From IMG/VR virus record IMGVR_UViG_3300046000_006661, positions 1,821-65,820 of that record: DNA of 64,000 nucleotides; one strand, given 5' to 3'. The stretch comes from a virus. Its lineage: Duplodnaviria > Caudoviricetes. How positions within the stretch are numbered: position 1 is the stretch's first letter; each line of letters opens with the position of its first letter. The notes under the pieces were generated by a model. The model was not told the DNA's origin and made no database searches. It worked only from the letters and a program-made list of their open reading frames with translations. Made by a program: the position numbers and the translations under genes. Below, piece after piece: positions 36,945 through 58,860 of the stretch.

Positions 36945-38027
36945 ATGAAAAGCCTAATAGTAGAAGCTCCACTTAATTCCCTTAGTTTCGGAAATGTTTC
37001 TTTTAACATTCTTCGGGAGTTGTATAAATTGAATTTTGATATTGGGCTTTTTCCAATTGGAAATGTTGACTTGTCTACTTTCAAAGTCTCAGAAGACTTT
37101 AAACAATATTTGCAGAGAGCAATTGATAATCGTTACTCGGCGTTGTCACATGGATCTCCATCACTGAAGTTATGGCATTTCAGTGGTGGAGAAGACAGAA
37201 AATCTCACTGTCAAAATCTTTTTACATTTTACGAGTGCAGCGAACCCACTGATATAGAAGTCGCTATTGCCAAATCCCAAAATAAGGTAATCGTTACTTC
37301 CAATTATGCGCTGGACTTGTTTAAACAAAAAGGGTGTGATAACTTTGTTTTTGCACCTCTTGGGTTCGATCAGGACTTCCAAAGAACTGATCGCACATAC
37401 TTGAAAGGCGTAACTCATTTCGGACTGATGGGCAAGTTTGAGAAGAGAAAAAACACTGCTGGTATCATCAAAGCATGGCTCGAAAAATATGGAAACAACA
37501 ACAAGTATCAACTTACTTGCTGTATTACAAATCCATTCTTTAAGCCAGAGCAAATGAATGAAATCATCAACGGTGTTCTTGGAGGCAAAAGGTATTCTAA
37601 TATCAATTTTCTTCCATACTTGAAAACTAATCAAGAAGTCAATGAGTTGCTGAACGCAATTGATATTGACCTTACTGGATTAAGTTATGCCGAAGGTTGG
37701 AATCTGCCAAGCTTTAATGCTACATGTCTCGGCAAATGGTCTATCGTCTCAAACTCCACCTCTCACAAAGATTGGGCTACAGATGAAAACGCCATTCTCG
37801 TTGAGTGTGATTCTCATATCGACAGTCATGATGGAGCATTTTTTACTACTGGTCACAGCTTTAATCAAGGTCCTTTTCCTGCTTATTCTGAGCAAGCCAT
37901 GATTGATGCATTTGACAGAGCAGAAAAACGCTTGGCAGACCAACCTATCAATACTGCTGGAATCAAACTTGGCGAGCAATTAACTTATGCCAATACTGTC
38001 CAGAAAATTCTTGAGTCGTTCTCCTAA
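36945..38027 (+). CDS. GT4-like (GT-B) glycosyltransferase
   Basis: GKFEKRKN and S.AEGWNLPSFNA..LGK..I motifs. Confidence 0.82.
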   Translation: MKSLIVEAPLNSLSFGNVSFNILRELYKLNFDIGLFPIGNVDLSTFKVSEDFKQYLQRAIDNRYSALSHGSPSLKLWHFSGGEDRKSHCQNLFTFYECSEPTDIEVAIAKSQNKVIVTSNYALDLFKQKGCDNFVFAPLGFDQDFQRTDRTYLKGVTHFGLMGKFEKRKNTAGIIKAWLEKYGNNNKYQLTCCITNPFFKPEQMNEIINGVLGGKRYSNINFLPYLKTNQEVNELLNAIDIDLTGLSYAEGWNLPSFNATCLGKWSIVSNSTSHKDWATDENAILVECDSHIDSHDGAFFTTGHSFNQGPFPAYSEQAMIDAFDRAEKRLADQPINTAGIKLGEQLTYANTVQKILESFS

Positions 38028-38424: not shown

Positions 38425-39585
38425 TCAAGCAAACGCTCCAACTATATCAAAAGAACTGATGTATGTTGATGGTTTTGGATATGGCGAAACTTTTAATCCA
38501 GATGCGTCTGTAACCTCTACGGAGTAATTTGCGCTAAACTCTATTCTATTGTTTACTGTCATAGAATGCGAAAAAGAATTTATTTTCGCGCCACGAATCT
38601 CAAATTTTCCAGAAGCAGTTTGTTGTTGATCTGCAAATATAATATCGAAGTCGTACGTCTCTTCCGCTCTATTAAGCAGATGAAGATTACCGCTAGAAAA
38701 TTGATCAACTACAGCGCTAACGTCAACAGATGCTCTTATTGGCAACTGAAGCTTTCGTCCATATACGTGATTACTGCCTAAACCATATAGATCCGTTCTT
38801 TCAAATGGGACAGAAAGATTGACAGACTGAATGATTGCTCCACTAACGAGAACCGCTCCACCCATCTGTAGATTTTCGAGTTGAGCTGATACATTTTGAG
38901 GAGATACCACTTTTGGTCTAAATATATTGAGTTCATTGTTATTAAATTGGTTGGAATATCCTGATAATGATGTTTTTAAATTACTGAAGTTCAAAAATCC
39001 TGATCCGCTATTGTTTCCTGAAGCAAGATTGATTGCTGGAATACTAACATTTGAACCTGTCAAATTTGTCATTTGAAGATTTGACGCGCTGAACGAAGCA
39101 GATACCGTGGGCAATCCACCTACTTGAAAACCAACAGAATAGTTATTCAAAAAGCAGTTACCAATCGCTGCGCATGTCATTCCACTGAAATTAGTTCGCG
39201 GCGAAACTCCCGTAAAACTCTGCAATAAATCTTGCCCGTTTTGATCATTTATAATCAAATAAAAATTCTGATCGCGAGTAGACATTCCAGATGCTATTGA
39301 TCTTGCTGATCCACTTGCGGGTGATAGTCCAAGCAGATACTCGTTTACTAAATGCGGCGAAAAAAGATAATCAACATTAAAAGAAACATTCGGCGCTCTA
39401 ACAATTGAATCTAATGCATATTGTTGCGAGCCTACTTGTTTTGATGTTTGTCTATCCACCGAAACAGAAATCTCTGATCCTTGAACTAGCGGCACAAAAT
39501 AACCGCTCTGCTCGGTAGTAGTCCAAGCAGGAGATGGTGATGTTGCTAGTATTGCTGAATTGCTTTTGAATATGAATTTGCTCAT
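38425..39585 (-). CDS. Tail-tube paralog (tail tip/initiator) ending in a TYISSFDIVGA peptide
   Basis: Aligns by eye along its length with 56569..57684 (IGNCFLNNYS..VG.LPT; IQS..LS.P..R....LGS). Confidence 0.75.
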   Translation of the reverse strand: MSKFIFKSNSAILATSPSPAWTTTEQSGYFVPLVQGSEISVSVDRQTSKQVGSQQYALDSIVRAPNVSFNVDYLFSPHLVNEYLLGLSPASGSARSIASGMSTRDQNFYLIINDQNGQDLLQSFTGVSPRTNFSGMTCAAIGNCFLNNYSVGFQVGGLPTVSASFSASNLQMTNLTGSNVSIPAINLASGNNSGSGFLNFSNLKTSLSGYSNQFNNNELNIFRPKVVSPQNVSAQLENLQMGGAVLVSGAIIQSVNLSVPFERTDLYGLGSNHVYGRKLQLPIRASVDVSAVVDQFSSGNLHLLNRAEETYDFDIIFADQQQTASGKFEIRGAKINSFSHSMTVNNRIEFSANYSVEVTDASGLKVSPYPKPSTYISSFDIVGAFA

Positions 39586-41315: not shown

Positions 41316-44300
41316 TTATCTTCTTAAAGAGCCTCCAATTCTTTTCTCGTCGTTGATGATCTGCAATACTGCGTCTTTGATTTGACGAGCGAGTTGTTGA
41401 CGGCTTGCAGATGGATCTTGCGAAGTTTCTTGAGAGGTTTGACCAGATGGAGCCACGTTGATTGTTATGTTTCCAGTTGAGCCAGATGCGCCAATAAGTT
41501 CATCAAGTTTTGCCAAGAGTTTTTCGTTGAGTTCCTTGCTTGTCTCTTCTGAAGTGATGGAAGTTCCACCAGAGTTCATTGATTGAAGGTTTGGCGCTCC
41601 AATGCTTTGAACAGCAGAGCGATTCATCACAAACTCTCCACCAGAAAGCATAGCTGGAACTGTGTCGATACCAGACCTAGATGGAATCATTCCACCAGTA
41701 GCGCTTCCTTTGGGTTTTCGCGGTAAGAGTATAAATTCTGGATTCTCTACTAGCGGAGTCATATTTGGATCAGATAATCCCTCTGGAAATAAATTGCCAC
41801 CACTCATACTTGTAGCTGCATCAAAAACAACTCCAGCAGGCGTTCTTGCTGTCCCTCTAGGTATGGAAGCATTTGCAGAAAATGGCATGGCTCCAGAAAC
41901 TGGCTCAGCCCTTAACGCGCCAATTCCGCCGCTTTTATCAATGTAAGAAGCAAAATTCTGATCTGATTGATAAAGATCCGATAATTGTTTGGCATTTCCG
42001 ATTTGAGACAGTTTGAATTTATTTACAGCACCCGCAAAATCTCCAGAAAACATCTTTCCAGCACCACTAAATAAATTTGATAAGCCTCCAACTTGTTGAT
42101 TTCCTACTTTCCCACCTTTAATTGCTCCAGAAAATGCAGTGCCAAATTTTTGAAAAAATCCAGCATCCTTTGGCAGATTGCCGAGAGCGGCTTTAGCTCC
42201 AGAGCTAGCAGCATTCCCAATACCTCCTAATGCAGCGCTTCCAACCAACATCAATAATTGAGATGTTAAAGCTTTTTTCTTTTCTTTCTCTTGTTTCTTG
42301 GCTTCTATTTCAGCATTATACTGTTGCAGATACAAATCAAAAGCTTGCTGTTTTGCTGATTGAGTGGCTTCGAACTGTGGCGAATTTCTCATTCCAGAAA
42401 CAGACAACATTGGACTTTCTGGCTCAAGAGCAATAGATTGGTAGCCATTTTCATTTGTCATTCTATCAAACACTCCCGATGTACCACTTTGAGTTGCAAA
42501 GCTTAATAAATCTCTTTTGCCTAAAATAGCTCCAGTATTATAAGTTCCTGGGGTATAGAAGCCAGCATTGCCGCCTTGTATTTTTTTGGCTTTTGATCGT
42601 CTTTCTTCATATATATTTTGTATTAATTTATTATATGGATTCTTTTCAGAATCGACCATGCCGCCATTAGCGTAACCATTCAATGTTCCGTTGTTGATTG
42701 CCTCTAAGAATTTTGGACCGTATTTCGATACAGCTTTCTTATTTACGACATATTCGCCGCCCATAAGCATTGCTGGAACATCGTCTTTTGATCCAGAACC
42801 ACCAGTTACTTTGCCGCCAGAAGCGAATCCAAGCATTCCAGATAAGAAATCAATAAATCCGCCACCACCAGCCGCTTCCTCTCCTTTTCCTTTAGGTTTT
42901 CCACTAACAATCCGATCAACTAATCTGCTAGTCATTCTTTGGTTTATAGTTTTTACCAACTCATAAGCGGCAGAACGGAATCCTTCTTTGAGAGAAACAG
43001 TTCCTTCAATTGCAGAGTTTATTGCACCGCTAATTCCATCAGAAAACATTTTTGGAATGTCTTTGCCTAATAGATAAGCAAATTGCTCGCCATCTATCTG
43101 CATTTGCAAAAATGCATTTTGCATTCCTTCTGCGAATGTTGAAGGAGATCCCTTTAAATCGTCTAGTTGCCGCTGCAATTGAGAATTTTCTGATTGTCCT
43201 ATGCTTTGAATTTCACCATTAATTTGCTTAATTGCATCTTCTCTTTCTCTAAGATCTTCTTTTGCTTTAGCAGCGTCTTCGCCACTTCTTATTGTATTTG
43301 CGGCTTGAGCTAATTTTTGTGCTAAACTTGCAGCGGCTTCATCTTGTAGTGTAAGTTCTTCTGTGGCATATTTTAATGCAGAATTATATATCTCCGCAGA
43401 GTCTGTCAATTTAGATAGTTCTTCGGCTTTTTTAAATTTTTCTTCTTCAGAAACTTTTGTAGTTAAAACTGTTGTAGTTGCTAATCCTGTATCTGTAGCT
43501 GGCCTGTAATCAGCTATTGATGATGTTCTACCAGTTGGATTGCCAAATTCTTTCATAAATGAAGGTTTGGCTCCACCAGCTTTACTCATCCGATCTGTAG
43601 CACTTCCAACTGGTCCCAATCTAAAGTTAGATGCCAAAGGATTATTAGGAATAACCTCTACCAGTTTTTTTAAAGCAATTGTGTTTTCTTTAATTTGTTC
43701 ATTATTGTCTCCTAATGCTAATATATTTTCTTCGAGCTTAGCATTTCTCACGAACTCGGCTTTAGCATCTAAGATATTTCTTTCGCGTTCGCTTTGTAAT
43801 TCATTTTGGAATTTAAGTCTTTCGAGTCTGTTTTCCTCATCTCTTCTTTCAAACGGAGAAATTCCATTAGTCTTAGATAATTGAGCAAGCTTTACGTCAA
43901 TGTCTGCATTTTTTAATTGCGATGCATATCCAACTTGTGTAGATTGATTCGATATGTCAGTTGCTCTTGCTGACATAAGTTGCGCGTATCTTTCAGACGC
44001 TTTATTGTTTTGTTCTTGGATTTTGTTTTTGGCAATTTCAAGATTTTTCGATTTTTCTTTTTCATCGTTTCCGTCTTGAACGGCTCGATTTGTTCTTTCT
44101 TGCAAATCAAGAGCGTTCAATATTGCTTTAGCTAATTGCTCAGCAGCATAAATATTTTCTTTTAAATCAGTTCCCTGTAATTGGGCTTTTGCAAAATCAA
44201 TCGCAGCTTGCTGTTGATTATTACTGCTTAATATCGCTTGCGCTTCTTTATTATCTTTAAGATTTTTTAAAGTTGCTCTTACTTTATCTTCTGCATTTGA

Positions 44301-47300
44301 GCCTTTAAACAGACCCTTGTCCATGAATTCTCCCGCCAATTTGTTTAGCTCTTCTTGGATTGTTTTTTGAGCTTCTAATTCGGCAGTTTGTTTTTCTAGC
44401 GCTGCTTGAGCTTCCAATGTTTTGATTGTTCTATTAGATGCTGAAAGATTTAAATCAGCTTCTATACCTGCTACAAGAAGTGAAGAATCATAACGCTTGT
44501 CTGCAATTTGCTGCTCTATCGTTCTAATAGACTCTCTTTCAAGCTTTTCTCGCTTGATAGCTTTAATTGTTTCTTGTAATTCTCTTGGTGATCTAGCTGT
44601 CGCGCTAATATTTTCTTCCGCAATTGCTTTTTCTTGATCTTTCGCAAGAGATGTAGTTTTATTTATATATTCATTTTGTATTTCTTCAGAAATGCCTTCT
44701 TTTTTTAAAGATTTAATTAAATTTAATAAAATTGTTGATTCTGGCGTTTGTCTACTTTGAGCATCTTTAAAAGAATTATACTCAAAAGAACCCTTTTTAA
44801 AATCTTTGCCTTCATACAAATACATAGTATCAGCTATTGACTTGGCTGATTGAATTTCTTCATAACTTGCGCTACCTAATACTTTTGCATTATCTTCGCC
44901 TATTTGATTTAGTAAATTTTGAGGGCTTAATGTCGATGGTATTTCAGACATCATTTTATTTAACTCATTGATATAATTTTTAACTTGACCGCCATTAAGC
45001 TGCACTTCGCCTAATTCATTTTTATCTCCCTGTTTAGCGTAATTAAGTAAAAGTTCATCAATTGTTTTTTGAGGAATTCCAACACCTCTTGCGTTTGCCA
45101 TAGATGTATATAATTCTTGGTTTAGTGTATCGCCAAGACCTTCTGTTAAATCACTATATCTTAATGAAGTCATGTCAATTTTTTGACCCATAGCTTTCGC
45201 TACTACTTGAAAGGCGGGAGCCATTAGTTTTTGTCCCGTGGTTTGTTCGCCATCGGATGTTAATTTTTGAGCCTTGCTTCCTATAGCCAAAACCGAAGCT
45301 CTAGCCTCTTCTTCAAATCTTTTCTTTATTGCTGGATTAATATTGTCTAAATTTACAGAAGCTTTACTAGCCGCTTCTGCTAATCTGCCAGTTGCTTCAG
45401 CAGCGCTCTTCATGCCTTGATTATTGCTATCTACATATTTTATAGCTTCCTTAAAAGCCACATACAAACCAACTCCTACTGCGGCAACACCACCCAATTT
45501 TCCAATGACTCTACCAAATCCTTTTTCTGCACCACCAAAAGCTTGCGATAATCCCTGACCAGCAAAAACTACTGTTGTTACTGAGCTAGCAACTGCACCG
45601 AAACTATTAAATAATTTCGCCATACCGCTTGTCGCGCCTTCTGTAGCTCCAGTTAAGGCGCTCATTGCTCCTTGAACTGCAAAAATAGTTCCAAGCATAT
45701 CTCTATTACCACCAGGAGTAGTGCTAGTGTCTCTTACTTTACCCATTGGGTTAGTAATAGATCTTTTTGCGCTTTGTGTGACTGCTGCTTGTAAATTTGC
45801 TGCGTTTTGATTAGCTTCTGCTTTTTTATTTGCTGTGTCTGTTGCAAGCGTTTTAGATTGGATTGCTATTTGCTTACGCTCTTCTAATGTTTGTCGAAGA
45901 GGTTGTTGTGCAGCGGCGACAGCTTTCTGCTGTTGAGCTTCTTGCATTTGCATATTAGTTATTGCCGCTTGCGCTTGTGGCGATTTCTTCCCCGCTGCTT
46001 GTGCTGCTGCAAGATTAGCCTGAATCTGTTTTAAAAGATCCTCTTCTTTTTTTAACATATCCCTTTCTATCTTGCTTCGTTTTTTTAAACTTTCAGAAGT
46101 TTGCTTTAAGCTTTTCTCTTGATTATCATATTCATCTTGAATTTGTTTCAAGTTATCAGTCAATCCTTGATTAATTTTAACTGTTGCTTCTGAAGGCTTC
46201 AAACCAACATAAGGAGATATATCTGCACCAGCTGCCCCAGCAGCAAAATTCGGCACAAACCCACCAGCAGCACCATACATCATTGGATTAGCTCCTTCTT
46301 TTCTTGCGCGGCTAATACCTTGGAATCCGCCAGCAGGTTCATCGCGACGATTGGCAACCATCAAACCCATAGGGTTTGCCGCATTCTTTAGCGCAGGACT
46401 CTTATCAATATAAATCTGTGAAGCAGGAACACCAGCAGCCATTTCGCGACCTACTGCCGCTTGAAGTGGATTGGCAAAGTTGGGAAGGAAGCCGCCAGCA
46501 GCTCCGCCTTCAATATTTCTGCGAGCTTGTTCTTTTATTTGTTTATGTGCGATTCTAGCTCTCTTAACCAATCCTTGAATCATTGGAGTTGGATCATTTA
46601 TATGACTTCCTGACCTTAATGGAATACCAGCATCTAAATCTATTAAATCTTTAAGAATTGATTGAAATGCTCCCATCTCTCTTGTAGAAACAGAAACGCC
46701 AATTCCTCTATTCATTAAGTCTTGAAATCCAGCTTTTGCCGCAGGTATAACCTGCTCTAAAGACTTTCCAACTAGGTCTTGTTCAATTGGAGAAATTCCG
46801 TTTGGCAATACAGCACCAAGAAACTGATCAAAACCAAGAGTTTTTGCAATACCAGTCAAAGGCTTCAGCTTTTCTAAAAGCCTTTTTGCATTTTCTGATG
46901 CACGATTAGGTGTTCCTCCAGCAAAATTAGGAATAAAACCACCAGCAGCCCTGGTGTTGAAAGGCACAACGCCTTTAAAAACCGCTGGCTTAGCTTTCGG
47001 GATAGAAGAAACCAATTCTCTCAAAATATAAGGTCCAATATTAAATCCTCTTTGCTCTGATTCCACGTAAGCGTTTTGGCTTTGTATTATTTTAGAAAAT
47101 TCAGAAGCAGAAGGTCTCAATTGTCCATCAAGGTATTTATATAAAATTTCTTTTTCTGCTGGATGTAAAGCTACGTCCCACGAATCTTTATAAGAAGCAT
47201 AAGCTTGTGGAAACTCATTCTTTCTCATTACTAATTTTTGTTTGCCAGTAAATCCTCCTAAAAGAGCGGTGTTGCCATAAAAGCCACCTTTATGGTCGGT

Positions 47301-50300
47301 CATTCTTGCTTTATCTTGTCCATGGTCATCAGCATAACCCCTTCTGCCAGCTAGTGCTGCTTCTGTAGCAACCTGCTTTCCATGTTCGCTTTTGGGATTT
47401 AATTTTAAAAATTCTCCCTTTTGGATATAAGCATCGCTTTTCTTCCCATCGTAATCCTTTAATGATTTTTGGCCTCCTAAAAGTTTGTATTTCAAGTATT
47501 CTTCCGAATCAGCATCTATGCTATGGCCTTCTCCACCTCCTGACTCGCGAGTCCCACTAATAACATTTTTGTTATTATAAAATGCTGTATTTATTCTTTG
47601 GGCTGCGAATTTAGCGAATTTTTCTCTTAATTTGTCATTTGTTAAAAAAGTTTTTATCGTATATTTTGCATTATCAAGATCTTTTCGTGTTTTAATGAGT
47701 CTTTCTGGTTCTTCGACAAATTTAGATACCATTGGCCAAACTTTATCTAAATCCAGTTTGCCTTTTAAAGCGGAAGAAATTACTCCTTGGGGTAATTGAG
47801 ATCCAAGATTTTTTGAAGAGGATATGGCAAATTTTGCAGCATTAAAAGCATCCATTACCCCGAAATTCGGCACAAACCCACCAGCAGCATTAGGAATATA
47901 ACCACGCGCAAAAGTATCTACTATAGAACTAATTCCAATGCTTAAACTACCGCCGCGCAAATCTTCGATAAATTCTTTGGGACCACTTTGCGTTTTGTTA
48001 TGTAGACCTTTAATTTCATTAATCAACAAAGAAAAAACATCTTTACCCGAAACCCTCTTAGCATTTATCTCCCTACCATTTTTTCCCCTATAACTAAAAG
48101 AGTCAATATTCGTATTTTTTACATTGCTGTTTTTTCTGTACCAAAGCTGCGGATACATCCCCTTTAAAATTTCTTCAAAGCCTACTCGTTGTCCTCCTTG
48201 TAAATTAGCCTCTAAATCATCTAATCTTGTTTTATCTTGAGCTAGAAGTATAGTAGAATACAACTTCATACCAGACCTTTTTGATAACGCCCCCAAGTGA
48301 TTAAACATTCTTAAACCATCGCCTTTTTGTAGAGACCTTATATAATCTATATTTATATAGTTTTTTAGTTTGCTTCCCGTTGATTTTGGATCGTATGATA
48401 ATGGATCGTATAAAGATGCATCCAGTTGTTTTAGTGAGTATGAAGCGTAGCTTCTGCTTTTTGGATCTGTTGCTGTTTTGGATTTTTTACCAGTAACATT
48501 TGATATTCGTTTGTTGAGACCAGGAATATATCCACTTAGAGCGTCAGGCGCTGTTGTTGGTTTTCTTCCATACGCAATGGATTGGTATTGAGGTGGAATT
48601 GCGGCTACATAATTCGGCACAAACCCATCAGCAGCACCATACGTCATCGGATCAGCTCCTTCTTTTATTGCTCTGTTGATTCCTTGAAATCCACCCGCTG
48701 GTTCGTCACGACGATTTGCTACCATTAAACCCATTGGGTTTGCCGCATTTTTTAATGTGGGGCTTTTGTCAACATAAATCTGCGAAGCTGGAATACCAGC
48801 AGACATTTCTCTATTCACTGCATCTTGCAATGGATTAGCGAAATTAGGAATAAAACCACCAAAAGCATTTTTTGCTTGTACTGCTTTTTGCGCTTCTGAA
48901 AGATTAAATGCGCCCTTTGCTTTTAAAATTTTAAGCGCTCTAGCGCTGTATTCAGGATCATTGAATACTTTTTTAATTATTCCTTGAACTTGACCAGAAC
49001 TTTCAAAATTAGCTTCTCCACCTCTTTTTGCCTCTCCTCTTTCAGCAGTTATTCCAAATATTTTACTAATACCTTCTGCATTCGAAAAATCAAATGGCCT
49101 ATTCTGTTCTTTACCAGAAAAAATTCCAGTAGATTTTAAATTTCCAGTCTTTAAATCTACTGCATCCCTTAAAGAATTAACCGCTACTTTACCAGCAGCT
49201 TCAAATAAATCTCCCTGTGCAGCAGTTGGTAATAATTGTTGTCCTGGTGTTTTTGCTATTTTTCTTATTGTTCCAACCCAATCTTCATTTTGAGCAAAAA
49301 GTTTACCATATAATTTATAAGCAAGATCGACAATTCCTTGTGCAAATGTATCACTTATATCTTCCTCTACCCCTTCAATGTCTCTACCAGATGGAGTATT
49401 TGTTTTTTGAATTCCAGAAAGTTGAATGTATTTATTTTTGTCTATTGGGGGTGCATCTTTATAGTTAAAGAACGGAATATCAGCAATCTTCATTGTTGTA
49501 TTTAAAAGACCCTTTTTCTTGCCAAATCGTGGAGAAATGAGAGCAATTCCACCAAGATTCTGGGCATTTAATTCATACGAACCCTTGTCTGCTATTTTTG
49601 CTTGTTTAATATCCGCATTAACAGCCGATACAGCTCTGCTAGACTTCATTACCCTTTCAACTTGAGATGGTGCTGCCTGAGTTCCATCAGGAAACCAATA
49701 ACTTCTGTATGGTCTACCAAATTCATCTTTCCCTGGTCTTATGTAATTTTCAATATTGCCAGCTTCAACATATTTTCTTATCTCGTCATCTATGGCTTTT
49801 GGTCGTGGCGCTTCAGCAAAGTTTGGAATAAAGCCTCCAGCACTATTATCAATTATAGAATTAATTTTTCTTTCAGAAGCTCTTTGAGAAGTTCTTTGTT
49901 CAAAATAAGAACTATTATTAAGTTTCGTATCATAGGGAACAACTAATCCTAATTTTCCTGATACGTTCTCGTCAAATGGATTTTTAATGTAGTTATTTGA
50001 AAGAAAAGAGTTTGCATATTTTTTAACAATTTCAAAAAGATTTTGTCTTTCCGTTGTTTTTACTTCATTATTGTCAGTTAAATCGAAAAATGAATTTTTA
50101 CCCAAAATTGGTTTACCGAGTAATTGAGATGCGTCTATCTCTCCAATAACTCCTTGAACTTTGTTTTGTAATTTTATCCATTTATCTTTATTTCCCTTTG
50201 TATCTCCTTTTGCATATTTTATATTTCTGATCGACGTTTCAATTGAAGAGACAGCTGATGGATCTGCACCTGCTTCTAACCATTCTTTTTTATATCGTTC

Positions 50301-52490
50301 CAAAGCATCTTCATTAATTTTCTTGCCAGAGCTAACTCCGAGTTTAGTGAAAATATAATCATCTTCTTTTCTTGTTTTTGACTGTCCTTTTCCAAGTACT
50401 AGCCCCGCTTCGTTTTGATAGGATTTAATTGCTTTTTTTTGTCTAAAGACGCTAATTATAGCTTTAAATTGATCAGATAGATCTGCATTTTCTCCATTTC
50501 TTAAAGCTCCTGATTTAGATTTTTTAAAAGAATCTACAGTCGTAAATGGAGTTTCAATGATTTCTGGCTTTATTGTATTTGCAAAATTTGGAACCAATCC
50601 TCCAGCTGCATTGATTTTCTTTGCTCCCGATGGCAACCCCATAGATTGAACCATACGTCTATTAAACACAGCAGTGCCACCACTTCCATTGAAATTCGGC
50701 ACAACATACTCGCCAGTATGTGCAACCATCGTCCCTTTTTTACCGCCTCCAAAATTAAAGTTTGGCATGACAACTGGTCTATCACCAGAACGAGCGCCAC
50801 CTACTCCTTGTTTGATTGCCTTGCTTTCTTTTGCAACTGCTGGCATATAACCGCCAGCGCTATTGCCAATGCGCAAACCAGAATCTTTAGCTCTACCTCC
50901 TACATTATAAAGAGGCGCTGCTAGTCCAGAGGAAATATTAGCGCTTCTTCTAAGAAGAGCTTCTTGCTCAACCAATGCTCCAGTAATTAATCTCAATTGA
51001 GCTGCTCTGTTGCCTTCTAATGCAAACAGTTGCTGTTGCAGATTGACGTTCTTGGATAATATTTGAGAAATTGCTCCCTCGACATTTTGAACTTCTTTAG
51101 CTGCCTTACCAACTCCAAAGAATGCCTTCAAGCTAGCAAATCCAAACTGTACTAAATCTTTTGAAAGTTTAAGAATAATGCCGCCAAATAAAGCCAATCC
51201 TGGACCAGCTAAAAAGCTTCCAAGACCTTTAACAAGTCCACGAACCAAATTTCCTAAACCGCTTTCTTCGCCTAAAACTTTTTGAATGCCTTCTAGCAGA
51301 CCATTGAAAAAGCCTAAAACATTTTTCAGGCTATCTGTTACGCCAATTTCACCAAGTTTCGCGCCAAGTTGCTCAGCACTTACAGCAACTTTATTTAATA
51401 ATGCGGCTAGCGTTTGATTAAGAACTGCATTTTTCTGATACGCCTTGCTTCCAGCTTCACCCATAGCCTTCAAAGCGCCAGTAGTAACGGATGCTTCATC
51501 AGAAAGGTCGTTTAATGCAGCTAGCAATTTATCCAATTGATATACACCGCCTAGTTTTTTGGCAATATCTGCTTGCTCAATTTGAGAAAAACTGCCCATT
51601 TTTTTAGCCAAGTTTTCTAATATTTTTAACGCTGGCAATACTTCTCCTTGAAGATCTGTAACTCCTACACGCATGTCTTGCAAATCGGACAAAACAGCTT
51701 TATCTTGTATTCTGCTAAAAATTGTTTTAAAAGCGTTACCGATAACAGCGCCACCTCTAGCGGTTTTTTCTTGAACTGCTGTAATAACAGCCGCTAATTC
51801 TTCAAACGAAACTCCAGCTAAATTAGCAACTGAGGCAGATCGCTTGAGACCCTCAATAATATCTCTTTCCGATACTGAATATTTTTGAGCAGCAGCAACA
51901 ACTTTATTGAGAATTTCTGCTGTGGTGATTCCAGAACTCTTGAATGAGTTAAATGCAGCAGTCAAACCTTCAACAGATTGTGCGGCATCTAGTCCAGAAA
52001 GCCGCGAAAGAATCAAAGCATCGTTTAATCTAGCAAGTGTATCTTCTGCGTTCAAACCTTGACGAGCCAATTCTAATGCACCTTTAGCAACTTCGTCAAA
52101 CGATTTGCCAGTATTTTTTGCCACGTTAAAAATATCTTGACCAAATTTGTCAAGTTCTGAGCCTGTCTTATTTAAGACGGTGCTAATTTCTACTAGACTT
52201 TTTTCTACTTTAATAGTGCTAGTCAAAAGTCCAGACATCGCCTTAGATACGCCAGCAATAATACCAGCTGAAGCTCCGAACGCCAAAACACGCGCATTTG
52301 CTGCTGCCATGGATTTTGAGAACTCATCTGCCTGACCAGTAATCCTACCCAATGGTTGGCTCAATGCGTTAATTTGCTTTGAGTTTGTTCCCAAGTTAAT
52401 CTGCGAAGAACTACCTACACGCTTCATTGCAGCGGCGATACTTTGCTCTAATCCGACTTGAGTAACTTGTAATTGAATAGACTGTGACAT
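41316..52490 (-). CDS. Tape measure protein with internal cargo modules (3724 aa)
   Basis: TP901-type core (ELARQG, TARGGAVIGNAFKTIFSRI), hydrophobic G/A segments, long coiled coils, FASGG/D.VPAML.GGE C-terminal motifs; AGGAG SD upstream. Confidence 0.92.
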   Translation of the reverse strand: MSQSIQLQVTQVGLEQSIAAAMKRVGSSSQINLGTNSKQINALSQPLGRITGQADEFSKSMAAANARVLAFGASAGIIAGVSKAMSGLLTSTIKVEKSLVEISTVLNKTGSELDKFGQDIFNVAKNTGKSFDEVAKGALELARQGLNAEDTLARLNDALILSRLSGLDAAQSVEGLTAAFNSFKSSGITTAEILNKVVAAAQKYSVSERDIIEGLKRSASVANLAGVSFEELAAVITAVQEKTARGGAVIGNAFKTIFSRIQDKAVLSDLQDMRVGVTDLQGEVLPALKILENLAKKMGSFSQIEQADIAKKLGGVYQLDKLLAALNDLSDEASVTTGALKAMGEAGSKAYQKNAVLNQTLAALLNKVAVSAEQLGAKLGEIGVTDSLKNVLGFFNGLLEGIQKVLGEESGLGNLVRGLVKGLGSFLAGPGLALFGGIILKLSKDLVQFGFASLKAFFGVGKAAKEVQNVEGAISQILSKNVNLQQQLFALEGNRAAQLRLITGALVEQEALLRRSANISSGLAAPLYNVGGRAKDSGLRIGNSAGGYMPAVAKESKAIKQGVGGARSGDRPVVMPNFNFGGGKKGTMVAHTGEYVVPNFNGSGGTAVFNRRMVQSMGLPSGAKKINAAGGLVPNFANTIKPEIIETPFTTVDSFKKSKSGALRNGENADLSDQFKAIISVFRQKKAIKSYQNEAGLVLGKGQSKTRKEDDYIFTKLGVSSGKKINEDALERYKKEWLEAGADPSAVSSIETSIRNIKYAKGDTKGNKDKWIKLQNKVQGVIGEIDASQLLGKPILGKNSFFDLTDNNEVKTTERQNLFEIVKKYANSFLSNNYIKNPFDENVSGKLGLVVPYDTKLNNSSYFEQRTSQRASERKINSIIDNSAGGFIPNFAEAPRPKAIDDEIRKYVEAGNIENYIRPGKDEFGRPYRSYWFPDGTQAAPSQVERVMKSSRAVSAVNADIKQAKIADKGSYELNAQNLGGIALISPRFGKKKGLLNTTMKIADIPFFNYKDAPPIDKNKYIQLSGIQKTNTPSGRDIEGVEEDISDTFAQGIVDLAYKLYGKLFAQNEDWVGTIRKIAKTPGQQLLPTAAQGDLFEAAGKVAVNSLRDAVDLKTGNLKSTGIFSGKEQNRPFDFSNAEGISKIFGITAERGEAKRGGEANFESSGQVQGIIKKVFNDPEYSARALKILKAKGAFNLSEAQKAVQAKNAFGGFIPNFANPLQDAVNREMSAGIPASQIYVDKSPTLKNAANPMGLMVANRRDEPAGGFQGINRAIKEGADPMTYGAADGFVPNYVAAIPPQYQSIAYGRKPTTAPDALSGYIPGLNKRISNVTGKKSKTATDPKSRSYASYSLKQLDASLYDPLSYDPKSTGSKLKNYINIDYIRSLQKGDGLRMFNHLGALSKRSGMKLYSTILLAQDKTRLDDLEANLQGGQRVGFEEILKGMYPQLWYRKNSNVKNTNIDSFSYRGKNGREINAKRVSGKDVFSLLINEIKGLHNKTQSGPKEFIEDLRGGSLSIGISSIVDTFARGYIPNAAGGFVPNFGVMDAFNAAKFAISSSKNLGSQLPQGVISSALKGKLDLDKVWPMVSKFVEEPERLIKTRKDLDNAKYTIKTFLTNDKLREKFAKFAAQRINTAFYNNKNVISGTRESGGGEGHSIDADSEEYLKYKLLGGQKSLKDYDGKKSDAYIQKGEFLKLNPKSEHGKQVATEAALAGRRGYADDHGQDKARMTDHKGGFYGNTALLGGFTGKQKLVMRKNEFPQAYASYKDSWDVALHPAEKEILYKYLDGQLRPSASEFSKIIQSQNAYVESEQRGFNIGPYILRELVSSIPKAKPAVFKGVVPFNTRAAGGFIPNFAGGTPNRASENAKRLLEKLKPLTGIAKTLGFDQFLGAVLPNGISPIEQDLVGKSLEQVIPAAKAGFQDLMNRGIGVSVSTREMGAFQSILKDLIDLDAGIPLRSGSHINDPTPMIQGLVKRARIAHKQIKEQARRNIEGGAAGGFLPNFANPLQAAVGREMAAGVPASQIYIDKSPALKNAANPMGLMVANRRDEPAGGFQGISRARKEGANPMMYGAAGGFVPNFAAGAAGADISPYVGLKPSEATVKINQGLTDNLKQIQDEYDNQEKSLKQTSESLKKRSKIERDMLKKEEDLLKQIQANLAAAQAAGKKSPQAQAAITNMQMQEAQQQKAVAAAQQPLRQTLEERKQIAIQSKTLATDTANKKAEANQNAANLQAAVTQSAKRSITNPMGKVRDTSTTPGGNRDMLGTIFAVQGAMSALTGATEGATSGMAKLFNSFGAVASSVTTVVFAGQGLSQAFGGAEKGFGRVIGKLGGVAAVGVGLYVAFKEAIKYVDSNNQGMKSAAEATGRLAEAASKASVNLDNINPAIKKRFEEEARASVLAIGSKAQKLTSDGEQTTGQKLMAPAFQVVAKAMGQKIDMTSLRYSDLTEGLGDTLNQELYTSMANARGVGIPQKTIDELLLNYAKQGDKNELGEVQLNGGQVKNYINELNKMMSEIPSTLSPQNLLNQIGEDNAKVLGSASYEEIQSAKSIADTMYLYEGKDFKKGSFEYNSFKDAQSRQTPESTILLNLIKSLKKEGISEEIQNEYINKTTSLAKDQEKAIAEENISATARSPRELQETIKAIKREKLERESIRTIEQQIADKRYDSSLLVAGIEADLNLSASNRTIKTLEAQAALEKQTAELEAQKTIQEELNKLAGEFMDKGLFKGSNAEDKVRATLKNLKDNKEAQAILSSNNQQQAAIDFAKAQLQGTDLKENIYAAEQLAKAILNALDLQERTNRAVQDGNDEKEKSKNLEIAKNKIQEQNNKASERYAQLMSARATDISNQSTQVGYASQLKNADIDVKLAQLSKTNGISPFERRDEENRLERLKFQNELQSERERNILDAKAEFVRNAKLEENILALGDNNEQIKENTIALKKLVEVIPNNPLASNFRLGPVGSATDRMSKAGGAKPSFMKEFGNPTGRTSSIADYRPATDTGLATTTVLTTKVSEEEKFKKAEELSKLTDSAEIYNSALKYATEELTLQDEAAASLAQKLAQAANTIRSGEDAAKAKEDLREREDAIKQINGEIQSIGQSENSQLQRQLDDLKGSPSTFAEGMQNAFLQMQIDGEQFAYLLGKDIPKMFSDGISGAINSAIEGTVSLKEGFRSAAYELVKTINQRMTSRLVDRIVSGKPKGKGEEAAGGGGFIDFLSGMLGFASGGKVTGGSGSKDDVPAMLMGGEYVVNKKAVSKYGPKFLEAINNGTLNGYANGGMVDSEKNPYNKLIQNIYEERRSKAKKIQGGNAGFYTPGTYNTGAILGKRDLLSFATQSGTSGVFDRMTNENGYQSIALEPESPMLSVSGMRNSPQFEATQSAKQQAFDLYLQQYNAEIEAKKQEKEKKKALTSQLLMLVGSAALGGIGNAASSGAKAALGNLPKDAGFFQKFGTAFSGAIKGGKVGNQQVGGLSNLFSGAGKMFSGDFAGAVNKFKLSQIGNAKQLSDLYQSDQNFASYIDKSGGIGALRAEPVSGAMPFSANASIPRGTARTPAGVVFDAATSMSGGNLFPEGLSDPNMTPLVENPEFILLPRKPKGSATGGMIPSRSGIDTVPAMLSGGEFVMNRSAVQSIGAPNLQSMNSGGTSITSEETSKELNEKLLAKLDELIGASGSTGNITINVAPSGQTSQETSQDPSASRQQLARQIKDAVLQIINDEKRIGGSLRR
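46242..50864 (-). repeat. About ten dispersed AxGG(F/Y/L)(I/V/L/M)PNF repeats and a duplicated ~75-aa module inside the tape measure gene
   Basis: Copies near 50850, 50595, 49830, 48850, 48620, 47900, 47875, 46935, 46485 and 46255. Identical 27-mer at 46246-46272 and 47863-47889. Confidence 0.9.
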
Positions 52491-53506: not shown

Positions 53507-54268
53507 TTAGAGTTCATTACTTTCGACTCGCTTCATTAGGTCGTCGAATGAATCTTTATCGGAAGCTTGATTGAAGAACCAGAACGCCAAAATTGTTGCG
53601 GCTTTTTTGGTAATCAAGAAATAGAGCGAATCGTCGGATTCTTCTTTCTTGTAATATTCTGCAAGCTTGTCGTCAAAATCTCCAGCTCCAAAATAAGGCG
53701 TTGGATTTTCGTCATCAACTCCTTGAATATAGGTAAGCATGATAACATACCAAAGAATAAGCCTGTTCTGAGCTTTGACATCGGCAGTATGATCGAACAG
53801 TGCTTGATAATTCGACTCTGTTTCAACAATCTTGCGGCGAACTAATTGAAGCTCTTCGATAATTTCATCGACTCTTTTCGTTTGTTTTTCCGTTTTGTTT
53901 TGAATAATTTCGAGTCTTGAGTAATCAGACTGCAATTCAAAAATCTTTTTATAATTATCTACTAGCTCTTGAGCGTCATCTTCGCTCATTAGACCGCCAG
54001 TATCGCTATACTTTTTCGCTAACATCGCTTTCGTGAGAATGCCTTTTTTAATGCACTTGCTCATTTCAACACTAAACTCAAGTTCAGCATCTTCTAGTTC
54101 GCGGCGAGATGGCTTTTTAATTTTGACTGCGAGAGGCTCTTTTTCCTTGACTTTTTTAGTCACGGTAATCTGCTCGCCAGTTTTCTTGTCTGTTTTAGAC
54201 GAGCTAACTTCCTTTTCCACTTCTCTGTCAACAGAGAAACTATATAATTCTTTAAAACCTTTTTCCAT
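53507..54268 (-). CDS. Putative tail assembly chaperone (first paralog)
   Basis: Position, plus a V.IKKPS..E motif typical of such chaperones. Confidence 0.6.
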   Translation of the reverse strand: MEKGFKELYSFSVDREVEKEVSSSKTDKKTGEQITVTKKVKEKEPLAVKIKKPSRRELEDAELEFSVEMSKCIKKGILTKAMLAKKYSDTGGLMSEDDAQELVDNYKKIFELQSDYSRLEIIQNKTEKQTKRVDEIIEELQLVRRKIVETESNYQALFDHTADVKAQNRLILWYVIMLTYIQGVDDENPTPYFGAGDFDDKLAEYYKKEESDDSLYFLITKKAATILAFWFFNQASDKDSFDDLMKRVESNEL

Positions 54269-54273
54269 ACTTG

Positions 54274-54561
54274 TTATTTAAATATAAATGAAACAGAATA
54301 GTTTTCCATTTCTTCAGTAAAATTTCTTAGAGATTCGTTGCCGCCATCAAGTATTCTTTTACGAATCCAATTCAACTTATCGTTGGTAAAGTGATTTGCA
54401 GCAGTAATAATAACGTGATGTTCTTCTGGAATTAGCTCGTAAAGCTTATTATAATGAAAGTCGTGATCAGCTTTCATGTCCTCCAAAATTTTCAAGTAAT
54501 TCTTGAATAAAGCGGTGACTTCTTTCTTGTGCTGCTTTAATAAGTAGTGATTAGCGTCCAT
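54274..54561 (-). CDS. Hypothetical protein
   Basis: 95-aa ORF heading the chaperone operon. Confidence 0.65.
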   Translation of the reverse strand: MDANHYLLKQHKKEVTALFKNYLKILEDMKADHDFHYNKLYELIPEEHHVIITAANHFTNDKLNWIRKRILDGGNESLRNFTEEMENYSVSFIFK

Positions 54562-56568: not shown

Positions 56569-57684
56569 ATGGCAAGAAATCGAATCATTTATCAATCGGA
56601 AGGCGTATATATCAGCAAAGAAGCTACCTCTACTGGCAGCGGTGATCACGCCCAGCTTTCTCGCGTACAATCCGCGAACTACAATTTCAACATTGCTCGT
56701 CAGGATGTTAACCAATACGGTGAGTTGGCTCGTATCGACTCTATCGTTCTGGAATCTCCTACTGTGTCGATGGATATGAGCTACTACATCACTGATGGTC
56801 GAAATGAAGCCGCTCTTGGTTTCTATGTTCCCACTGGCACTCAAACTCAGTCTCAGTTCCCATCTGGTCACATTGTAGACGGAAGTGGAAGAAATCTTTA
56901 TATCGTAACCAGTAACGAAGGTACCGACCTTAACAACTTTGATGGCGCATCTAGCTTGAGTGGTAAAGGTTGCATCGGCGTTGGCAATGCTTATCTTACC
57001 GATTACTCAATTGAGTTGGCTGTTGGCAGCATTCCTACCGCAACTGTTAGCTTCGAAGGCTCCAACATGAATGCATTCACATTCAGCGGAACTAATTCAG
57101 GAACTTCTGTTGCGATCAATCAAGAATCTGGAACTGCACTTAATTCTGTTATTCGCTTGAAAGAACCCGATAGCTTTACTGGAGCTGCTGTGGTTACTGC
57201 TCTTCGTCCTGGTGACGTTACCATTAACTTTGGCACTTGGGGAACTGGCGGTTTGATTTCTAAACTCGGTGGCACTGATGGTGCGCACATTCAAAGCGCA
57301 AGCTTGTCTCTTCCTCTTGGTAGAACTCCAATTGAGCGACTTGGTTCTAAATTCGCTTTTGCGCGTGTTGTTGACTTCCCAGTTACCGCTACTCTTACTT
57401 TGAATGGCGTACAAAACGAAGTTGCTGGTGGCAACTTGGTTGATTTGGTCAATGCAAATCCCAAGCAAGACATCACAATTTCGGTCAAGAAGCCAGGAAC
57501 TAACACTAATGAGCTTGCTGTTGTATACGTTATCAAACGTGCGCAGCTTGATTCTGCTAGTGTTTCTAGCTCGATTGGTTCAAACAAAACTGCTGACTTT
57601 ACATTCACAACTCAAATCGGTGGTGCTAACGACACAGACAACGGTATTCAGATGAGCGGGAGCTTTACAACAGCCCCTTTTTAA
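56569..57684 (+). CDS. Major tail tube protein
   Basis: Two tandem tube-like domains (RVQSANYNFNIARQDVNQYG / IQSASLSLPLGRTPIERLG); synteny; followed by a terminator. Confidence 0.82.
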   Translation: MARNRIIYQSEGVYISKEATSTGSGDHAQLSRVQSANYNFNIARQDVNQYGELARIDSIVLESPTVSMDMSYYITDGRNEAALGFYVPTGTQTQSQFPSGHIVDGSGRNLYIVTSNEGTDLNNFDGASSLSGKGCIGVGNAYLTDYSIELAVGSIPTATVSFEGSNMNAFTFSGTNSGTSVAINQESGTALNSVIRLKEPDSFTGAAVVTALRPGDVTINFGTWGTGGLISKLGGTDGAHIQSASLSLPLGRTPIERLGSKFAFARVVDFPVTATLTLNGVQNEVAGGNLVDLVNANPKQDITISVKKPGTNTNELAVVYVIKRAQLDSASVSSSIGSNKTADFTFTTQIGGANDTDNGIQMSGSFTTAPF

Positions 57685-57752
57685 GTAGCCCTTCTGAACC
57701 TCCTGCTCCAACTTATATTAGTTCATTTGATATTGTTGGTGCGCTTTCATAA
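57675..57752 (+). other. Programmed -1 frameshift site and 23-aa C-terminal extension of the tail tube protein
   Basis: C CCT TTT TAA heptamer; the -1 frame reads (PF)LSSPSEPPAPTYISSFDIVGALS*. Confidence 0.85.
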
Positions 57753-57773
57753 AAATTAAAAAAAAAAAAAAAA

Positions 57774-57805
57774 GGGGGTTCTGAAAACAGAACCTCCTTT
57801 TTATT
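57774..57805 (+). terminator. Intrinsic terminator after the tail tube extension
   Basis: GGGGGTTCTG-AAAA-CAGAACCTCC followed by TTTTTATT; preceded by A16. Confidence 0.85.
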
Positions 57806-57844
57806 CAGAAGGGCTAAAAAAACAAAACAAAACAAAATAAAAAT

Positions 57845-58825
57845 ATGCCAAGATACATAGATTACGAAACATTTATAACTCCTAGTGGAGCCTTACCAGT
57901 TGCTCCAATTCAACCATACGAATATGCTTCCATTTACAATGGAATTAGCGATTTATTAATAAACGATGGAATAATTACATTTACTGGCTTGCCAACTGGT
58001 ATTGTTGTAGCTACACCAGAATCAAGCACAGCGCCATTTGATCAAGTTTTTGTTGATCTTGAGGATGCTGACGATTTCGTAACACTAAATTTAAATGGAA
58101 ACTACTGGAGCGGCAGTGCTATTGATAGTGGCGGCGAAGGCATAATATGTTCATATACTTCTGGAGGATTTTGGGCCATGGCACTTTATGATGGCGTAGA
58201 GCTGTATAGTATTATCCATACTGGAGATGGCGACCCTAATTCCTCTATATTGGATATTTCATTTAATCCGCTACAATCAGAATTACTAGAAAATCCTATT
58301 AATTTCGCTCCAGGACAAGAGGCTCCCATTAATTTAGTTCCAGGAGCTACTTATCAATTTGATGGTGACTCGTCCAGTATTACTGTTCCGATTCAATTTA
58401 ATCAAACTAGAAATGCTAGTTGGTATCTAGCACAAGTCAATAGATTCGGAGGCGTTTCTTATGGGCAATTAAATATTTCTGGAGTGGCATTTACAGGTGG
58501 CAGTTATCAAACTGTTACAATTCCATCGAAATCTGCTGGTGCTACACAGCTATATAATGTAAAATGGCTCAATGGTCAATTAACACTAACATCAGGAGCT
58601 GGACAAATGGCTCCAGACCCATTCGCAAATTTTAATTATGGAGTAGGAAATAATGTCTCCGCAATAATTCCAAACGAGATAATGAGCAGCTATAGCATTA
58701 TATCTAGTAATACTGGGAATAGTGGAACAGCTTCTATTCAAATCAATAATGCGCAACAATTTAGCGACCTGCCCTTGCCGCTTAGAAAGTTGCATGTTGT
58801 CTTTGACATTGCCGAGGATCTATAA
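57845..58825 (+). CDS. Putative tail-associated (decoration) protein
   Basis: 326-aa acidic, beta-rich ORF between two terminators, just after the tube gene. Confidence 0.55.
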   Translation: MPRYIDYETFITPSGALPVAPIQPYEYASIYNGISDLLINDGIITFTGLPTGIVVATPESSTAPFDQVFVDLEDADDFVTLNLNGNYWSGSAIDSGGEGIICSYTSGGFWAMALYDGVELYSIIHTGDGDPNSSILDISFNPLQSELLENPINFAPGQEAPINLVPGATYQFDGDSSSITVPIQFNQTRNASWYLAQVNRFGGVSYGQLNISGVAFTGGSYQTVTIPSKSAGATQLYNVKWLNGQLTLTSGAGQMAPDPFANFNYGVGNNVSAIIPNEIMSSYSIISSNTGNSGTASIQINNAQQFSDLPLPLRKLHVVFDIAEDL

Positions 58826-58831
58826 ACCACT

Positions 58832-58860
58832 AAAAAGGCGCTGTGAAAACAGCGCCTTTT
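58832..58860. terminator. Bidirectional terminator
   Basis: AAAAGGCGCTGT-GAAA-ACAGCGCCTTTT between convergent genes. Confidence 0.9.

Follow-up and report, generated by a model that had tools for sequence, protein, structure and literature searches.

The major tail tube gene of a tailed virus (Duplodnaviria; Caudoviricetes; IMG/VR record IMGVR_UViG_3300046000_006661) ends, as judged from its relatives, in a conserved recoding site at which a -1 frameshift would add a short C-terminal tag to the tube protein. We analysed 64,000 of the 65,820 bases of this record (positions 1,821 to 65,820, hereafter the window), of which the part around the tube gene end and the gene that follows (57300-58200) is matched in lake-water metagenome runs. 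The reading we favour, with a probability of roughly 0.6, is that programmed -1 frameshifting meters out a tag on which a variable, separately encoded decoration protein docks, namely the 326-residue product of the next gene. Comparison strongly supports the first part of this reading, and recoding itself is very probable. Given recoding, docking of the 326-residue protein is the best-supported function of the tag, and a fairly likely one.

The tube gene and its -1 extension

The tube gene closes with GCC CCT TTT TAA, and the putative shift site is formed by its last two sense codons. The preliminary description of this DNA had read here a perfect X XXY YYZ heptamer, and C CCT TTT indeed stands at 57675-57681. 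Translation in the -1 frame from 57681 yields LSSPSEPPAPTYISSFDIVGALS followed by a stop, that is, a Pro-rich linker and then the tag TYISSFDIVGA. The same 11 residues lie at the C terminus of a tube paralog encoded in the tail-tip module, which ends in frame with SPYPKPSTYISSFDIVGAFA and then a stop. As had been claimed, six of the 11 codons differ between the two copies, all synonymously (extension, ACT TAT ATT AGT TCA TTT GAT ATT GTT GGT GCG; paralog, ACA TAC ATC AGT TCT TTT GAT ATA GTT GGA GCG), and a six-frame scan of the window found the motif nowhere beyond extension and paralog. The terminator is likewise where it had been placed, just past the -1 stop, its hairpin (57774-57797) beginning 21 nt 3' of that stop.

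The identification of the gene as that of a major tail tube protein also stands. An AlphaFold model built from 45 sequences (predicted local distance difference test, pLDDT, 77) has its best Foldseek matches among the tube and tip proteins of DT57C and T5, including T5 pb6 (5ngj, 9iny, 7qg9_A) and T5 p140, and the P74-26 tube, at E values of 8e-12 to 1e-7 over ~380-420 alignment columns. By its modelled fold, the product is a T5 pb6-type double-domain tube protein. PHROGs and Pfam gave no match for the tube protein, the paralog or the 326-residue protein, and tblastn of the tube protein against deposited phage genomes gave none either.

Conservation of the recoding site among relatives

Tube relatives were gathered at 23 viral-contig loci and 52 metagenome-contig loci, and 76 loci were examined with the window; the 3' end of the tube gene is present in 68 of them. 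In 24 of these 68 loci, with tube identities of 61-100%, the -1 frame runs on for 17-26 codons and closes with a variant of the tag, so that the makeup described for the window, a linker and short tag with no Ig-like domain, recurs in 24 of 24 (17-26 aa). The linker varies through in-frame indels only (SPSEPS, SPSEPPAPT, SPSEPPEPPTPT, SPFEA, SPPEDPE), and within the tag core F, I, G and A never change. On this comparison, the extension is a conserved C-terminal tag of ~13 aa set behind a linker of variable length.

Counted pairwise over the 19 distinct DNA versions of the tag, codon differences in the -1 frame are 640 synonymous and 648 non-synonymous, against 97 and 1133, and 100 and 1037, in the other two frames; the tag changes among relatives are wobble-only. 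This synonymous excess over the other frames bears out the proposal that selection acts at the protein level on apparently intergenic DNA. No ATG, GTG or TTG stands between the upstream -1 stop and the tag in any of the 24 loci, and the peptide is therefore not translatable on its own. In four loci (L004, L034, L072, L047) the -1 frame opens just 3-5 codons ahead of the 0-frame stop, which pins the frame change to the T-run.

At the slip site itself, NNT TTT is found in all 24 tag loci (CCT TTT in 22, GTT TTT in two), and the perfect heptamer C CCT TTT in 17. The 0-frame TAA directly follows TTT in 18 loci, and one sense codon lies between them in the other six. At the tube ends of the eight tag-less loci of the same clade, a T before the TTT codon does not occur (0/8); members read CCT TTC TCG, GCT TTC GAC, CCA TTT TGA or GTC TAT AGT. 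An in-frame tag on the tube protein is not seen in any of the 120 best tube-homologue clusters (60-100% identity). That the tag is kept out of frame argues for selected partial tagging.

Two doubts raised in the preliminary description, a single-base assembly error and decay of the site among relatives, are answered by these data. In runs X9 and X12, DNA contigs span 57675-57684 without an indel, as does one contig of RNA library X16 (the comparison was made on contigs, 57745-57848 was skipped as a repeat, and the X16 contig ends at 57704, an end that carries no weight), and the T-run is thereby confirmed in other runs' contigs as well as in the independent assemblies of relatives. Slip site and open -1 frame are retained in 24 loci, with indels in frame only.

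A Shine-Dalgarno-like GGGAG (AGC GGG AGC, 57648-57656), 12 nt before the slip site, is present in 10 of the 24 tag loci and in none of the eight tag-less ones, and the remaining 14 tag loci have GGC, GGT or GGA at its position. We dropped it as a candidate frameshift stimulator because only these 10 loci have it.

A long-range stem across the terminator

Shortly past the slip site lies the 5' arm of a long-range stem, the 3' arm of which follows directly on the terminator U-tract; between the arms lie the remainder of the extension and the terminator (Table 1). The arms form 13 bp and are perfectly complementary in the window; the stem begins 4 nt past the heptamer and its 11-nt core at 6 nt. 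The minimum free energy fold of 57675-57825 is closed by this stem, at -54.8 kcal/mol (z -8.7), and none of 200 shuffles is as low. Across 21 aligned loci (A1; 20 distinct rows) the 11 core pairs persist, apart from a single mismatch in each of three rows, and four of the 11 have changed on both sides (G-C to C-G, two U-A to C-G, C-G to U-A). None of 500 shuffles reaches the covariation score of stem and terminator together, pairing drops from 92% to 39-65% when the partners are slid by 1-3 columns, and RNAalifold independently predicts the same long-range stem. The spacer between TTT and the core is 6 nt in 21 of 21 loci although its letters differ, and a spacer of this length is the usual geometry of -1 frameshift stimulators. 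Rfam gave no family at gathering score for the stem region, the best being idnO with 28 bits against 100.

Because the 3' arm lies past the U-tract of the terminator, only read-through transcripts can form the stem. Reading of the window sequence found neither a promoter-like GTGTAA motif nor a Shine-Dalgarno sequence ahead of the 326-residue protein's gene, so this gene probably depends on read-through as well.

The slip site and the bases before it (57664-57682) show 79% complementarity to the terminator's A-run and rising arm (57769-57787), a pairing that could compete with the terminator hairpin. Judged by eye, pairing of the slip site with the terminator 5' flank is not kept in distant loci.

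The downstream 326-residue protein

A homologue of the 326-residue protein is encoded 3' of the tube gene in 23 of the 24 tag loci, and the contig of the 24th, L040, ends 86 nt past the stop. No such homologue follows the tube gene in the eight tag-less loci of the clade or in 36 more distant loci. Among the informative loci examined, neither tag nor gene is kept without the other. On a tube tree of 26 rows, which left out partial tubes, exact duplicates and most of the distant group, the tag/partner label needs five changes, at least four of them forced by supported branches.

In tag-less loci the tube gene is directly followed by the terminator that in the window comes after the 326-residue protein's gene: the two-way terminator at 58833-58860 is the element found after the tube gene in L003, L006, L008, L022, L037, L076 and L081. 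By this shared terminator, the tag, the first terminator and the downstream gene behave as one cassette, gained or lost exactly at the slip site.

Where tube proteins are 61-100% identical, the 326-residue proteins are 26-100% identical, meaning that this gene is swapped far faster than that of the tube. Conservation is confined to the first ~135 and last ~60 residues; the part between them varies, and L041 and L045 lack it altogether. Searching 1.84 billion representatives with a profile returned only 28 clusters, some of them ~200-aa forms without the middle domain. A 4490-residue protein (P0143) with 34 cadherin-like PF16184 repeats matches the middle domain only (58277-58600), which hints that this domain is an adhesion-type beta sandwich. 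The protein is modelled with a pLDDT of 87. VIA-align of residues 145-252 gave weak matches to phage spike and fibre domains (Z 5.2-7.0) and BFVD gave weak tail-fibre rows (TM about 0.2), while Foldseek of the model against the PDB found no match at E <= 0.001 and the ESM Atlas held no usable one. The window's own record encodes no second protein of this family.

Predicted binding of the tag

The preliminary description had proposed that the tag recruits a separately encoded protein and had named the product of the next gene among the candidates. An ESMFold2 complex, computed from an alignment of the 326-residue protein and an alignment of 30-residue -1-frame peptides, supports this prediction, with a score of 0.78 (runs 0.78, 0.79, 0.77), while the best of three controls reached 0.02. 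The score mark used is reached by 58 of 80 solved complexes and by two of 110 mismatched pairs, rates that are rough here as custom alignments were used. The runs share 100% of their contacts, and the partner is modelled with a pLDDT of at least 70. Contacts are made by peptide residues 17-30, exactly the tag, with partner residues 5-59 and 300-322, its conserved termini, and the tightest pairs join tag residues 23-28 to partner residues 315-320 and 27-31. In the model the tag thus runs as a strand flanked on either side by a conserved terminal strand of the partner, an arrangement that supports binding. Tag variants and partner termini co-vary across the two main clades, GAFVPA tags going with NFSGIS partner ends, in a pattern that is confounded by descent.

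The tube paralog and its tails

The paralog (28% identical to the tube protein; BLASTP E 5e-22) is encoded in a tip module on the minus strand, which in order comprises a 3724-residue open reading frame, a 262-residue gene, a 315-residue gene with the PF05939 minor-tail domain, and the paralog. Because its tag is in frame, each paralog copy in this genome could dock the 326-residue protein; such binding would follow from the shared tag, and the paralog would in this respect resemble T5 p140.

The earlier claim that all copies of the tip paralog bear the tag is right for this genome but not for its relatives, in which the tail classes differ. The 86 paralog-type proteins compared (P0021-P0106) end in the tag in 25 cases and in a W-rich tail (WQNI..W; ..WQNI.V.W..) in 31, and the remaining 30 have another tail or none; a small group ends in ..YLSDGSQVFL... 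These classes suggest alternative docking tails for different partners. In the L005 record, the tube extension (FYAEFGIYGAFAPSV) and the paralog (YYEPFSIMGAFAPAF) share one local variant of the tag, and in the L012 record the paralog is W-rich and both the tag and the 326-residue protein's gene are absent. These two records, and that of L001 discussed below, fit a rule of tag somewhere, partner present, though three cases are few.

A scan of viral contigs for exact FDIVGAFA found 10 loci, of which three are real C-terminal tags; the other seven were rejected as internal chance matches. A scan for FDILGAFVP found a single locus, L101, a distant paralog with the tag on a contig without the tube gene.

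Proposed mechanism and alternatives

In the mechanism we propose, a minority of ribosomes would slip by -1 on C CCU UUU, or at least tRNA-Phe would slip on U UUU, aided by the stem that begins 4-6 nt downstream. The product would be a tube subunit with a C-terminal tag, and the tag would act as a beta-strand address inserted between the conserved N-terminal strand (residues ~27-31) and C-terminal strand (residues ~315-320) of the 326-residue protein, whose variable middle is similar to fibre or spike domains of phages and to cadherin-like adhesion domains. Sub-stoichiometric tube subunits along a very long tail would thus be decorated in trans. More speculatively, tube-fold proteins with exchangeable C-terminal tags may constitute an address-tag system that recruits exchangeable host-binding proteins, with the tube tag deliberately out of frame and metered by a stem that can form only on the read-through mRNAs that encode its ligand, so that the number of tagged subunits would follow the supply of the 326-residue protein; we put this forward tentatively, as a doubtful generalisation.

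Several observations weigh against the metered docking tag. Both the frameshifting and its efficiency are inferred, and seven of the 24 heptamers are imperfect (A CCT TTT, G CCT TTT, G GTT TTT). Terminated transcripts, lacking the 3' arm past the U-tract, are unable to form the stem. Tag and downstream gene are adjacent, and one deletion or recombination removes or brings both, making their co-occurrence weaker evidence than the counts suggest. The tree label shows neither strong clustering nor strong dispersal (a count as low is reached by 31 of 500 shuffles), and some of the loci nearly duplicate one another (L002/L033, L041/L042, L003/L008, L006/L022). The complex score is a model confidence and not a measurement, and the modelled peptide includes 5-7 N-terminal residues outside the predicted product. 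Fold comparison of the 326-residue protein gave weak matches, with Z no higher than 7 and Foldseek E no lower than 3e-4. In the L001 record the paralog has a W-rich tail and no tag, while the tube is tagged and the 326-residue protein's gene is present; the link between paralog and tag is therefore not universal.

One rival accepts the frameshift and gives the tag another role, such as docking of a different virion protein, a strand contributed to the tube rings or the tip, or acceptance of a modification such as glycosylation. Adjacency alone could account for the co-occurrence, the several tail classes among paralogs show that such tails can have other partners, and a 360-residue gene (36945..38027) adjoins the paralog. 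Yet in the complex model it is the tag residues that meet the conserved ends of the 326-residue protein, at a score far above the controls, the tag without that protein's gene is found at none of 23 informative loci, and among the invariant F, I, G and A there is no obvious conserved Ser/Thr/Asn sequon for a modification. We consider this rival a minority prospect, distinctly less probable than docking of the 326-residue protein. A second rival, somewhat more probable, concerns the stem, which may instead belong to the terminator or to an attenuator, or control the stability or processing of the downstream gene's mRNA. It forms only on read-through RNA and encloses the terminator hairpin, and the gene beyond lacks a promoter-like motif and Shine-Dalgarno sequence of its own, all of which would suit such a role. 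Its placement 4-6 nt past the heptamer, with a 6-nt core spacer invariant in 21 loci despite codon changes, speaks for stimulation of a frameshift, and the two roles are not exclusive; a stem without any part in frameshifting is possible and, in our estimate, rather unlikely.

If RNA polymerase were to slip on the T-run during transcription, one extra U in the mRNA would lead to the same protein, and the site is a homopolymer (T5 in 18 of 24 loci). The run is, however, merely 4-5 T, with T4 before a sense codon in six loci, and known transcriptional slippage sites are longer than this. A conserved, covarying stem 6 nt downstream fits ribosomal frameshifting, and the single RNA-library contig across the site has no indel, though contigs cannot reveal a minority form. 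Slippage of the polymerase thus seems improbable. Least credible of all is that the tag is displaced by an assembly error, or is what is left of a once in-frame tag that has lost its function and is decaying. One missing T would indeed place it in frame, but 24 independent loci from different samples are all out of frame, the contigs of other runs concur, the in-frame arrangement is absent from the 120 best tube-homologue clusters, and the tag is under strong purifying selection, with linker indels kept in frame.

Features of the window

Coordinates of the elements discussed are collected in Table 1. The 3724-residue open reading frame of the tip module (41316-52490, minus strand) lies in tape-measure position; a tape measure of this size would call for a very long tail, built from several hundred tube subunits, which makes partial tagging of the tube plausible. 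Just upstream of it is a pair of genes, the first of which (95 residues) ends TTT AAA TAA, 6 bases before the ATG of the second (253 residues; 53507-54561, minus strand). The position of the pair fits tail assembly chaperones, and it may hold a second recoding site. A close relative, G001 (the record behind L001), is 133,831 bases long, carries direct terminal repeats and has a rating of complete, and by this measure the window's record may be about half a genome.

Table 1. Positions of the tube gene, its candidate recoding elements and the associated genes in the window
Feature	Position	Strand	Evidence
Major tail tube gene, 0 frame, 371 aa, two tube domains, T5 pb6-type	56569..57684	+	Open reading frame, AlphaFold model, Foldseek
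Putative slippery heptamer C CCT TTT, with 0-frame stop TAA (57682-57684) immediately after	57675..57681	+	Sequence, locus comparison
Predicted -1 extension, 23 codons and stop (57750-57752); Pro-rich linker LSSPSEPPAP, then tag	57681..57752	+	Translation, locus comparison
Long-range stem, 5' arm; 11-nt core at 57688-57698	57686..57698	+	Fold, comparison
Conserved tag TYISSFDIVGA; predicted interface with 326-residue protein	57711..57743	+	Comparison, complex model
Intrinsic terminator, hairpin 57774-57797 and U-tract, within loop of long-range stem	57774..57802	+	Fold, comparison
Long-range stem, 3' arm, directly 3' of terminator U-tract	57804..57816	+	Fold, comparison
326-residue protein, predicted tag partner; conserved N- and C-terminal parts, middle variable and sometimes absent	57845..58825	+	Open reading frame, comparison, complex model
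Tube paralog, 386 aa, tail-tip module; tag in frame at C terminus (38434-38466)	38425..39585	-	Translation, BLASTP

Comparison with known systems

Major tail proteins extended by frameshifting are established in SPP1 (gp17.1*), the 936 group (TpeX) and the Listeria phages PSA, A118 and A500 (PMC6669499, PMC5009743). The window shares with them a shift at the 3' end of the major tail or tube gene. In the cited passages, what those phages add is itself a folded domain (Ig-like, adhesin or carbohydrate-binding) of at least ~100 aa, with a +1 shift in the Listeria phages; here, by contrast, a linker and tag of 17-26 aa are too short for a domain, and the binding domain is apparently supplied in trans by the next gene.

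For the paralog, the nearest known analogue of a tube duplicate with a docking tail is T5 p140, a duplicate of pb6 that forms a ring beside the distal tail protein, and the C terminus of which contacts the collar protein p132 that anchors the side fibres, according to the sections of PMC10038345 drawn on here. The T5 duplicate sits in the tip, the paralog of the window is encoded in the tip module, and the tube protein of the window folds like pb6 and p140. The differences are that pb6 has an Ig-like domain of its own, with no frameshift described in those sections, and that here the docking tail of the paralog would also be placed on the tube protein, by recoding. No similarity was detected between the 326-residue protein and p132.

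T7 gene 10A/10B offers a precedent for the slip site, as its -1 shift takes place on G GUU UUC where the gene of a major virion protein ends, and slip sites with an imperfect X_XX are on record; the same account reports an unexplained long-range effect of terminator sequence >200 nt downstream (PMC5009743, in the parts consulted). Two of our loci have the similar G GTT TTT, and the stem described here bridges a terminator. T7 differs in that the extended protein is that of the capsid and not of the tail, with no docking role for the extension described in that portion of the source, and in that the long-range pairing of the window is an explicit, covarying stem. The layout of a stem across a terminator may therefore bear on the T7 effect. 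The lambda tail assembly chaperone gpG/gpGT is made in two forms at a ratio fixed by a -1 frameshift, and the segment gained in this way binds a further tail protein (PMC5009743, Figure 4 legend); gpGT leaves the tail, whereas the shifted product here would be a tube subunit.

If the proposed mechanism is right, the number of decorated subunits on a very long tail could be tuned cheaply, and the decoration could be changed without altering the tube gene. It would also provide a defined peptide-protein pair and a compact recoding cassette made up of slip site, 6-nt spacer and terminator-spanning stem. A limited search of the literature, in sources partly available to us, found no case of a docking peptide added to a tube protein by frameshifting, which is not proof of absence in print. 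Known systems fuse whole domains to the tube by frameshifting; what seems new here is a short docking strand of ~13 aa, with the variable module left on a separate gene.

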